A stretch of DNA of 64,000 nt from an uncultured Bacilli bacterium (GTDB lineage: Bacteria; Bacillota_I; Bacilli_A; RF39; UBA660). Within the stretch, counting starts at the first letter, position 1. Each line of letters starts with the position of its first letter. The stretch is taken from assembly GCA_944358775.1 (NCBI GenBank), contig CALVRU010000002.1, positions 7,138-71,137 of the forward strand. The letters run 5' to 3'. This document shows positions 3,554-18,823 of the stretch, in pieces. The translations under genes and the position numbers were made by a program. The notes below the pieces were generated by a model that saw only the letters and a list, made by a program, of their open reading frames with translations, had not been told where the DNA came from and searched no databases.

Positions 3554-5580
<2,027 letters not shown>

Positions 5581-16171: not shown

Positions 16172-16791
16172 TGAAGTTAAAAAAGAAATTTAAAATTATA
16201 CTCGCTATTATCATTATTCTAGTAGTAGCTGTTACCGCTTTCTTTGTTTATCGACATTTTACTACCAATAACAAAAAGCCAACCGAAGTAACAGTAATCA
16301 GTAAAATTGATAGTTATGGTTATCAATTAGAAAGTAATAAAACAAAAGTCTATAATGATTTGTTCAATCATCTAAAAGAAGTTTTAACCGGTGACAATAT
16401 TGATGAAGAAGAATATGTAAAAACGATTGCCCAACTATTCCTAGTAGATTTTTATACACTAAAAAATAAGTTATCCAACGCGGATATCGGTGGCGTTCAG
16501 TTTTTAGCACCATCGATTCAAGAAAACTTTATATTGAAAGCGAAAAATACGATTTATAAATATGTAAAAAGTAATATCTATGGTGATCGTGAACAAACGC
16601 TTCCCGAAGTAAAAGAAGTAACCGTTGATGAAGTGACAACGGAAAGTTTCGAGTATGGAGAAAACAAAGATGAACAAGCATATAAAGTAAAATGTACGAT
16701 TCATTATGTCGAAGATCTTGGATACGATACGGAAAAAGAATTGATTTTTGTACACGAAGATAATAAATTAGTATTAGTAGAAATGAATTAA
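16171..16791 (+). CDS. hypothetical membrane-anchored protein
   Basis: It has an N-terminal TM helix and is translationally coupled to ltaS (ATAATGA overlap). Confidence 0.5.
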   Translation: MKLKKKFKIILAIIIILVVAVTAFFVYRHFTTNNKKPTEVTVISKIDSYGYQLESNKTKVYNDLFNHLKEVLTGDNIDEEEYVKTIAQLFLVDFYTLKNKLSNADIGGVQFLAPSIQENFILKAKNTIYKYVKSNIYGDREQTLPEVKEVTVDEVTTESFEYGENKDEQAYKVKCTIHYVEDLGYDTEKELIFVHEDNKLVLVEMN

Positions 16792-16822
16792 TATGGATGA
16801 GAAATCCATATTTTGTTATGCA
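16790..16822 (+). terminator. Rho-independent terminator
   Basis: Hairpin TATGGAT-gagaa-ATCCATA followed by TTTTGTT. Confidence 0.5.
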
Positions 16823-16954
16823 GGAAATTTCGTAACAAAGTTTTATAGAAGAAACATTTTTTGCAATAGTTCAACCTCAATCTCCCATACGAATAAAACG
16901 AGAAACAAAGCAAAATATTTACAGATTATAAATTGCAAATCGGCAAAAATTGGC

Positions 16955-16984
16955 TTGCAAAAAAGCCTGGGGGGGGGGTATAAT
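16955..16984 (+). promoter_or_regulatory. sigma-70-type promoter (TTGCAA-18 nt-TATAAT) whose spacer contains a G10 homopolymer; candidate slipped-strand phase-variation switch
   Basis: The -35 TTGCAA is at 16955-16960 and the -10 TATAAT at 16979-16984. The 18-nt spacer is AAAAGCCT followed by ten G (16969-16978), ending immediately before TATAAT. The ATG of the downstream surface-protein gene is at 17013. Confidence 0.6.
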
Positions 16985-17012
16985 GGTTTATATAAGATAA
17001 AGCGAGGCAGTT

Positions 17013-18800
17013 ATGAAAGAGAAGATAAAGATAGGAATAAAGTTCCTAAAGAAAAAACTACGTATATCTGTTGTGTTCCTAACACTTCTTTTTGGTTTAC
17101 TTATTTTAACAATCAGTTATAGTTATGCATTTTATACGATTGCAACGGAAAAGAAAAATGTAATTAGTTTAACAGCGGGACAATTTTCTTATCAGTTATC
17201 GGGAGCGAATATTACCAATAATCAAGTGACTGTTGCACCAGGAACCACATTCGAACTTCCGCTTGTTATTACGAGTAAGAATCCGGTAGAAAGTAATTAT
17301 CAATTATATTATGAAGGTACCTTACCAAGTGGACTAAAAGTAAGTTATATCAAAGAAAGCGGCAGTCCAAATGGAACAATAGGAAATAATCCGAATCAAA
17401 AACAACTGACACTTGTTATCGAGAATAATACATCGAGTAATCAAAACATTACGTTAGGGATTCAAGGTGGTCTTGTCAATCAGGAAAACATTTTATTAGA
17501 TAATCGAACCAAAATAGATCAAGTTTTCTCGTACAATCAAACTTATGGTTTTACTGGTGAAGTTCAAGAATGGGTTGTTCCGGCAACGGGATATTATAGG
17601 GTGACTCTCAATGCGGCAAGTGGTGCACAAATCAGTAACTATAAACCAGGAGCAGGTGGCTATGTCTCCGGTATTATTTATTTAAAAGCACAAGAAAAAT
17701 ATTATTTTTATGTTGGCGGTCAAAAAAGTTCCTTTAATCTAGTACCTCTTAATGATACCTATGTATATGCTTCCGGTGGTGGAGCAACAGATATGCGATT
17801 AGTAAAAGGAAATACTTTTTGGGATACGGAATCGCTTCGTAGTCGTATCTTAGTCGCCGGTGGTGGTGGTGGTGCTGAATGGCCAGGATCACAAGGTGGT
17901 GCCGGTGGCCGATTAGTCGCAGATACCGGATGGGGTACTACATATGGACCACCGGACAATTGGAATGAAGAAAATGCTCAAATTAATTATAATATCAGCT
18001 GTCATGGTGGTGGACAAACTAGCGGTGGTAGTTGCGCGGGGTATCCGATCAATGCCTCTGGAACCTTTGGCTTAGCAGGTTGGTATAATCAGTGGAAAAG
18101 CGATGGTGTTACTGGAAGTGCTGAGGACAATGGTGGAATTGGTGGTGGTGGCTACTATGGTGGTGGCAGTATGGGATATGCCCATGCCGGTGGTGGCGGC
18201 AGTAGTTTTATCTCAGGATATGCAGGCGTAAATGCAATTACTGCAAGTGGTACACATACGAATAATACCATTCATTACAGTGGAAAATACTTTATTGATA
18301 ATAATATACTTCCGGCTTATAATGTCGGAGTAGGAAAAGCTGAAGTGACTTATCTTGGTTTAACTCACAATAAAACAAATACAAAGTTAAATGGTGTACG
18401 TTATATTAAAGACTGCATCAATAGTAGTTCAAATTTAGTGGATACTACTGCTATTTGGAATGAAGTTCAAGCTATTAAGGATGGTAAAAATTTGGCATAT
18501 GGAAAAACGGCCACTCTATCGGGAACAGTAGATAGTAACTATCCGATAAAAAACATTACGGATGGAGATTTAGAAAGTCGTAGTAGGACCCTAACGACAG
18601 GAATTCAATGTGTTACGGTAGACTTGGGAGCAGTTTATGATCTTGATGAAGTTGCCGTATGGCATTATTGGGAGGATTGGCGTGCTTATAATGATCATTC
18701 GCTTTCTGTATCTCGTGATAATATTAGTTATACGACAATTTCAACGAATAGCAATTATGCCGAGTCATCTATCGGATTTCACATCGATGCATGGGATTAA
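17013..18800 (+). CDS. glycine-rich surface protein with a C-terminal discoidin (F5/8 type C) domain
   Basis: An N-terminal TM/signal anchor is followed by a long Gly-rich region (GGGGGAEWPGSQGGAGG..., GGIGGGGYYGGGSMGYAHAGGGGSSF). The C-terminus has a discoidin-like signature (ITDGDLESRSRT...VTVDLGAVYDLDEVAVWHYWED). The RBS is GAGG. Confidence 0.6.
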   Translation: MKEKIKIGIKFLKKKLRISVVFLTLLFGLLILTISYSYAFYTIATEKKNVISLTAGQFSYQLSGANITNNQVTVAPGTTFELPLVITSKNPVESNYQLYYEGTLPSGLKVSYIKESGSPNGTIGNNPNQKQLTLVIENNTSSNQNITLGIQGGLVNQENILLDNRTKIDQVFSYNQTYGFTGEVQEWVVPATGYYRVTLNAASGAQISNYKPGAGGYVSGIIYLKAQEKYYFYVGGQKSSFNLVPLNDTYVYASGGGATDMRLVKGNTFWDTESLRSRILVAGGGGGAEWPGSQGGAGGRLVADTGWGTTYGPPDNWNEENAQINYNISCHGGGQTSGGSCAGYPINASGTFGLAGWYNQWKSDGVTGSAEDNGGIGGGGYYGGGSMGYAHAGGGGSSFISGYAGVNAITASGTHTNNTIHYSGKYFIDNNILPAYNVGVGKAEVTYLGLTHNKTNTKLNGVRYIKDCINSSSNLVDTTAIWNEVQAIKDGKNLAYGKTATLSGTVDSNYPIKNITDGDLESRSRTLTTGIQCVTVDLGAVYDLDEVAVWHYWEDWRAYNDHSLSVSRDNISYTTISTNSNYAESSIGFHIDAWD

Positions 18801-18823
18801 AAATCCCTTTTTTAATGCACAAA

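Follow-up and report, generated by a model that had tools for sequence, protein, structure and literature searches.

Locus and material compared

The stretch of DNA analysed here, referred to as the window, comprises 64,000 nt (33.5% G+C) of contig CALVRU010000002.1 from an uncultured Bacilli bacterium. A run of ten G residues lies within the predicted promoter of a gene for a 595-aa membrane-anchored protein in this window, and an earlier note, made from the letters alone, had put this run forward as a candidate phase-variation switch. The proposal is supported by polymorphism of the tract between strains and by the same architecture at four paralogous or homologous genes. The features of the promoter and its gene are the following.

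16940..16954, + strand: A-rich segment CGGCAAAAATTGGC, also found in the paralogue cassettes and replaced by the end of an insertion sequence (IS) in some strains
16955..16960, + strand: -35 hexamer TTGCAA (TTGTCA in one paralogue), with TTG and the following A's invariant over five genes
16961..16968, + strand: fixed part of the spacer, AAAAGCCT; in paralogues AAATCACTT, AAATCGCTT or AAAAGCTT
16969..16978, + strand: homopolymeric G10 tract that makes up the variable portion of the spacer (G8 to G12 elsewhere)
16979..16984, + strand: -10 hexamer TATAAT, unchanged in every strain and paralogue
16985..16992, + strand: GGTTTATA, discriminator and predicted transcription-start region, invariant columns of the cassette alignment
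17004..17007, + strand: GAGG ribosome-binding site, 5 nt before the ATG, kept in paralogues
17013..18800, + strand: open reading frame (ORF) of the 595-aa membrane-anchored protein, characterized with Pfam, an AlphaFold2 model and Foldseek

The promoter was read in 13 independent metagenome assemblies of the window species, the window included, with strain contigs being picked by identical neighbour proteins or near-identical gene alleles; six of the 13 strains were aligned across 6.6 kb for the comparison of single-nucleotide polymorphisms (SNPs) and indels. Homologues of the 595-aa protein were located on contigs and their upstream regions compared, and nine promoter cassettes from five genes, drawn from strains and homologues, were aligned. 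The assemblies derive from three pipelines (SPAdes, MEGAHIT and Logan) and more than 13 samples, and tract lengths are the consensus of short-read assemblies, some contigs having only 4-6x coverage. In the GTDB representative genomes, neither the exact promoter pattern nor a protein-based scan gave a match, and the closest other GatB found in the homologue search is 74% identical. Study-style sample names, taken by themselves, would point to a gut-type habitat of the organism.

Promoter anatomy

The layout claimed in the earlier note agrees with the coordinates: TTGCAA is followed by AAAAGCCT plus G10, by TATAAT and, after 28 nt containing the GAGG, by the ATG at 17013, and the poly-G at 16969-16978 is held entirely between the hexamers, within a spacer of 18 nt. 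The statement that such a tract is the only one in 64 kb at about 33% G+C likewise holds, as G10 is the sole run of seven or more G or C residues in the window, where the next-longest runs are two G6 and C runs of six or more are absent. Under independent, identically distributed and first-order models alike, 0.003 G runs of length 10 or more are expected in 64 kb. In a consensus promoter scan the site scores 10 of 12 hexamer matches with the 18-nt spacer. The promoter at 16955-16984 is presumed to be the one in use, and the A-rich segment at 16940..16954 may act as an UP-element-like sequence.

Several further observations concern the same sequence. A palindrome, TATAA-N4-TTATA, at 16979-16992 overlaps the -10 hexamer and the predicted start and is invariant in most cassettes, with its spacing off by 1 nt in contig L029; it could be an operator, or merely the -10 hexamer followed by conserved sequence at the beginning of the transcript. 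An extra TGCAAAT in the window produces a second TTGCAA at 16933. A minus-strand "terminator" over the -35 hexamer, GGCTTTTTTGCAAGCC, was rejected as not functional, its complementary arm not being conserved in the paralogue cassettes, and a histogram of spacer lengths at the promoter-like sites of the window was set aside as too noisy to give the preferred spacer of the organism.

The encoded surface protein

The 595-aa protein has an N-terminal transmembrane (TM) helix at about residues 19-40, a predicted immunoglobulin (Ig)-like sandwich at about 60-170, an ALK/LTK-type domain of the TNF-like/glycine-rich kind at residues 191-448 (PF12810, ALK_LTK_GRD; E 3e-32, 112.8 bits against a gathering cut-off of 24.5) and a C-terminal galactose-binding-like domain at about 500-590. 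The AlphaFold2 model (predicted local distance difference test, pLDDT, 86; predicted template modelling score, pTM, 0.84) comprises an N-terminal helix with a hydrophobic anchor, an Ig-like sandwich, a TG-like domain and a C-terminal beta-sandwich, and in Foldseek it matches the TG-domain structures of LTK and ALK (7nx0, 7nx1 and 7lrz; E 5e-9 to 1e-6, probability 1.00). The description of the gene product in the earlier note as an exported, Gly-rich surface protein is thus borne out by PF12810 and the TM helix, and the discoidin assignment stands in part: NedA-like galactose-binding PF22633 scores above its cut-off (31.9 bits against 27.8) and classical discoidin PF00754 below (18.8 bits against 28.2), so that "galactose-binding-like domain" is the safer name.

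There is no Cys among the first 60 residues, and hence no lipobox. The NCBIfam search returned no family for the glycine-rich-domain (GRD) proteins and no match to SipW/TasA-type signal models, the PDB sequence search with the 595-aa protein gave no match, and no literature on bacterial PF12810 proteins was found. A phage origin was considered and rejected, as a search of viral contigs yielded no relative of either the protein or the cassette.

Variation of tract length between strains

Tract-length differences among isolates, which the earlier note had named as the check to be made, are present: over the 13 samples the tract ranges from G8 to G12 between invariant -35 and -10 hexamers, giving a spacing of 16 to 20 nt, distributed as follows.

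G8: L003
G9: L002, L035
G10: window, L001, L008, L030, L032, L034
G11: L006, L031
G12: L011, L033

The flanks TTGCAAAAAAGCCT and TATAATGGTTTATA are otherwise identical over these samples, the exception being L030 with a variant -35 context. The six aligned strains differ by 0.3-1.0% SNPs, and their indels besides the tract consist of one of 44 nt and two of 7 nt, all intergenic. Four A7 runs and the A6 run of the promoter show no length change, leaving the G tract as the only variable homopolymer in the 6.6 kb; given so few other indels and the invariance of the A runs, no other site of the locus is nearly as prone to indels as the tract. The intergenic stretch upstream of the cassette is mosaic between strains (16813-16856 and 16919-16941), and it is there that the 44-nt and the two 7-nt indels are located.

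Recurrence of the cassette at other GRD genes

A shared cassette, consisting of the A-rich upstream segment, TTGCAA, 8-9 fixed nt, a G run of variable length (Gn), TATAATGGTTTATA and GAGG, stands before at least four other GRD genes.

P0002, 851 aa, between the PRK and GAPDH genes: TTGCAA-AAAAGCCT-G11-T-TATAAT
P0004, 856 aa, between infB and rbfA: TTGCAA-AAATCACTT-G9 or G10-TATAAT, one copy being interrupted, GGGCGGGGGG
P0003, 609 aa: TTGTCA-AAATCGCTT-G10-TATAAT
P0016, 837 aa, between RNase J and ftsY: TTGCAA-AAAAGCTT-GGGGGGTGGG-TATAAT

Over the nine aligned cassettes, TTG and the A's of the -35 region, the G run, TATAATG and TTTATA are invariant, and the coding sequences share only about 63% DNA identity over their first 450 nt. 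All 19 of the 19 G or C runs of seven or more residues in 162 kb of fetched related DNA sit at this promoter position. Interrupted tracts are rare, at 2 of about 20, and are located in L027 at 1455-1464 (GGGCGGGGGG) and in L036 at ~1071-1080 (GGGGGGTGGG); such tracts would slip far less readily and are candidates for "locked" alleles.

The recurrence that characterizes contingency loci is therefore found at P0002, P0004, P0003 and P0016, with P0008 and P0069 being without it. Upstream of P0008 (42% identity, found in five samples) the region is ordinary and AT-rich and has no tract, and P0069 (38% identity, GCA_942493215.1), which starts 45 nt downstream of the preceding gene, has none either. 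No second GRD gene is present within the 64-kb window. P0002 and P0004 are probably paralogues in the genome of the window species, because the samples from which they come, SRR34282162 and ERZ505336, also hold that species. A scan of Joint Genome Institute (JGI) metagenomes with TTGCAAAAAAGCCT-N4-20-TATAATGG returned only five unrelated sequences with mixed-sequence spacers (L012-L016), which indicates that the fixed part of the cassette is a good promoter-like string that also arises elsewhere by chance.

As for their genomic setting, the paralogues have the form of single-gene insertions, each with its own cassette, in housekeeping loci: infB/rbfA-truB (L026, 1-5571), PRK/GAPDH (L025) and RNase J/ftsY (L036).

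Transcription unit, gene loss and rearrangements at the cassette

Two hairpins bound the gene, on the + strand.

16790..16820, + strand: hairpin with a 9-bp stem, AUAUGGAUG/AUCCAUAU, followed by UUUUGUUAU (-9.1 kcal/mol, z = -2.85)
18793..18813, + strand: hairpin GGGATT-AAA-AATCCC plus T run, a terminator common to the convergent LytR-CpsA-Psr gene

The first of these lies directly 3' of the stop of the upstream 206-aa gene (gene end 16791), keeps its stem in all strains and is likely to be an intrinsic terminator that sets the 595-aa gene apart as its own transcription unit; with terminator hairpins on both sides, the gene appears to be monocistronic and to have a promoter to itself. Genes of the cell envelope surround it, namely those for an LtaS-like sulfatase, a LytR-CpsA-Psr protein with a PASTA domain, a glucosaminidase and a PASTA kinase.

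A common deletion allele occurs in L004, L005/L019, L009 and L010 (about 3700-3900 in locus coordinates, ~16900-18000 in the window), in which some 40 nt of unrelated sequence take the place of the cassette together with about 1.1 kb of 5' coding sequence, and a 209-aa C-terminal ORF remains. Members of 209 aa are numerous in the 90% protein cluster, and the loss of the gene in many strains marks the 595-aa gene as dispensable.

An IS3-like element adjoins the -35 box of the 595-aa gene in L031, L033, L034 and L035 (first ~50-140 nt), and such an element also adjoins the -35 box of P0003 (L029, 1-1253, with an rve transposase), the equivalent position in the window being 16952-16957. At the IS junction, a short target duplication, GCTT(G), restores TTGCAA. 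The last 25 nt of L022 are apparently the other inverted repeat of the element, and in L036 only 15 nt of the IS end are left. This placement suggests either a target preference for the cassette or spread via recombination. In L007 (ERZ505336 NODE_1185, 3700-3800; compared with L025, 1400-1500), the 851-aa paralogue and GAPDH are joined to the LtaS and 206-aa genes, and the crossover falls within the shared ~57-nt cassette; the join reflects either genuine recombination of one cassette with another or a chimeric assembly.

In the Logan, SPAdes and MEGAHIT assemblies, contigs repeatedly break in or near the cassette, at the starts of L001, L018, L028 and L030-L035 and at the end of L020. Such breaks are consistent with a dispersed repeat that carries variable tracts. 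An interpretation of the breaks as heterogeneity within samples was rejected, both on account of this dispersed repetition and because a length bubble would not match the positions of the breaks.

Proposed mechanism and alternative explanations

The observations that bear on the mechanism are the position of the tract between conserved hexamers, the confinement of variability to the tract, the perfect run at five diverged genes, the rarity of interrupted alleles and the dispensability of the gene. The tract also has the attributes of a simple-sequence repeat in a promoter spacer: it lies between the -35 and -10 hexamers of the predicted promoter, and in close strains it is polymorphic with conserved flanks. 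On these grounds it is considered fairly likely, from comparative sequence evidence, that the poly-G is a phase-variation switch for a dispersed family of surface proteins, operating through slipped-strand mispairing in the promoter spacer. In such a mechanism, the G tract would be a hypermutable simple-sequence repeat forming the variable half of the spacer in a predicted sigma-A-type promoter, replication slippage would add or remove G's and move the spacer between 16 and 20 nt, and each change would alter both the distance and the angular register of the hexamers and thereby the strength of the promoter. With 17 nt taken from the sigma-70/sigma-A rule as the optimum, G9 would give the strongest promoter and G8 and G10 one of intermediate strength, and with G11 or G12 the promoter would be weak or off. 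Because the same cassette heads GRD genes scattered among housekeeping loci, each gene could switch alone, and independent switching would yield combinatorial variation of surface lectin-like proteins. The switching would be reversible, with host immunity or phage as the presumed selective agent.

Several points weigh against this reading. Promoter-like sites are not enriched in the region, with 13 found against 12.5 expected from shuffles, so that the promoter call rests on conservation and not on the scan. The modal spacer is 18 nt instead of the canonical 17, and several paralogues have 19-20 nt, which makes the ON length uncertain; many copies may be weakly active or OFF, or a spacer of 18 nt may retain activity. 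As the tract lengths come from short-read consensus, with some contigs at 4-6x coverage, single +/-1 calls could be errors. The coexistence of all tract-bearing paralogues in one genome is presumed from their co-occurrence in samples and the identity of the cassettes. Finally, a homopolymer beside a -10 box need not be a switch: a poly-T tract in the vpma promoter of Mycoplasma agalactiae was shown to have no part in switching (PMC2268961).

That last case is a precedent for a non-functional promoter tract and favours the alternative in which the tract is hypermutable and serves as a tuning knob or is a neutral passenger, transcription being largely insensitive to spacers of 16-20 nt because the perfect -10 hexamer and the A-rich upstream region carry the promoter, or because another promoter or regulator dominates. 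The clustering of lengths at the 18-nt spacer over a wide range without obvious bimodality points the same way, as does the frequency of promoter-like matches in AT-rich DNA. A neutral tract of G8-12 at 33% G+C should decay through point mutations, yet five genes whose coding sequences are ~63% identical all retain it in the same place, and only 2 of about 20 tracts are interrupted. To our knowledge, moreover, spacer changes of 1-3 nt alter the strength of sigma-70-type promoters in every mapped bacterial system of such anatomy, vlp, maa2 and vmm among them (PMC2268961). This alternative is accordingly regarded as rather unlikely.

Lower still in probability, and judged improbable, is the possibility that the tract is a binding site for a regulator, a structural element or a hotspot for recombination or IS insertion, with the length variation as a by-product. 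The IS3-like element next to the -35 box in four strains and at the P0003 locus would fit such a role; the IS junction, however, is at the -35 box and outside the tract. Similarly, the L007 contig that joins two loci across the cassette may be a chimera formed across the 57-nt repeat, and the palindrome over the -10 hexamer does not conserve its spacing in L029. No regulator is known or predicted, and a perfect homopolymer of slippage-prone length would be left unexplained. That the tract or its length differences are artefacts of sequencing or assembly (Illumina poly-G or homopolymer miscalls), as might be supposed from the many contigs that begin or end at or near the cassette, from low coverage in some and from the reduced accuracy of short reads in G10 runs, is very improbable, since in assemblies from three pipelines and more than 13 samples the tract lies inside the contig between unique flanks, the differences reach 4 nt while other homopolymers are constant, and the contig breaks follow from the cassette being a dispersed repeat.

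Comparison with known systems

Homopolymeric or dinucleotide tracts in promoter spacers whose indels switch transcription ON and OFF have been described for vlp of Mycoplasma hyorhinis, maa2 of M. arthritidis and vmm of M. mycoides (PMC2268961). The closest analogy to the system proposed here is vlp, a multigene surface family with a conserved promoter cassette and independent switches, the host likewise being a low-G+C member of the Bacilli in the wide sense. In the vlp family, each gene is said (Citti and Wise, 1995) to have its own conserved promoter and to switch independently, giving combinatorial variation. The differences are that vlp has a poly-A tract, clustered genes for repetitive lipoproteins and a wall-less host, whereas the present locus has a poly-G tract, dispersed genes for large globular GRD/lectin-like proteins with a TM anchor and no lipobox, and a host with wall genes (LtaS, LytR-CpsA-Psr, PASTA kinase). 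The lipobox and repetitive C-terminal region by which the Vlp family is defined have no counterpart in this protein, which lacks the Cys and is modelled as globular domains; the window system as proposed works like vlp and is outside the Vlp family.

In Neisseria meningitidis, opc (poly-C) and porA (poly-G) have a homopolymer in the promoter spacer, with expression graded by its length and polymorphism between isolates. The G/C homopolymer in the spacer and the length polymorphism among isolates are shared with the present locus, whereas opc and porA are single genes for Gram-negative outer-membrane proteins and have no family built on a shared cassette. Repeat length also shifts promoter spacing and switches fimbrial adhesin genes in Haemophilus influenzae (TA repeats at hifA/hifB) and Bordetella pertussis (poly-C at fim). 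In hif, two divergent promoters have a dinucleotide repeat in common, whereas no divergent gene is seen here, and the fim tract lies between the site of the activator BvgA and the -10 hexamer, whereas no activator site is seen here.

The G-tract of a Bifidobacterium breve pilus reportedly acts through a frameshift and lies in the coding sequence, in contrast to the promoter spacer of the present locus. That sortase-pilus is described as an instance of a poly-G slippage switch of a surface structure in a Gram-positive gut commensal (PMC9187656). Regarding the protein, the central domain resembles the TG domain of metazoan ALK and LTK (the PF12810 and Foldseek matches given above), whereas the bacterial protein is membrane-anchored, has no kinase and no known ligand, and carries a C-terminal galactose-binding-like domain. 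The mechanism is already known and the gene family and lineage are new; being of a known kind, the mechanism gains a new member and no new principle is added.

Implications

A more extended proposal, which is held only tentatively and is doubtful at present, is that of a Vlp-like combinatorial phase-variation system in an uncultured, walled, gut-type lineage of Bacilli, made up of dispersed genes for ALK/LTK-type GRD proteins that are lectin-like and exposed at the surface. Each gene would be driven by the portable poly-G cassette, which would also be a substrate for recombination between loci and a preferred IS target. If it is true, ON/OFF switching, locking by interruption, gene replacement of the L007 kind and gene loss would all act on one ~90-nt module.

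Phase variation by repeat slippage has been documented mostly in cultured pathogens, and here a multi-gene system has been recovered from metagenome assemblies alone, with tract polymorphism at the level of strains as direct evidence in a lineage known only as "Bacilli bacterium" metagenome-assembled genomes. In practical terms, the cassette accounts for the repeated breaking of contigs, and for possible chimeras, when this organism is assembled, and the Gn length at about five loci offers a simple marker for population dynamics within the host. These findings provide a first functional hint for the bacterial ALK/LTK-like GRD proteins, which seem to be surface molecules that vary and are dispensable, and which probably serve as adhesins or lectins or else are targeted by immunity or phage.

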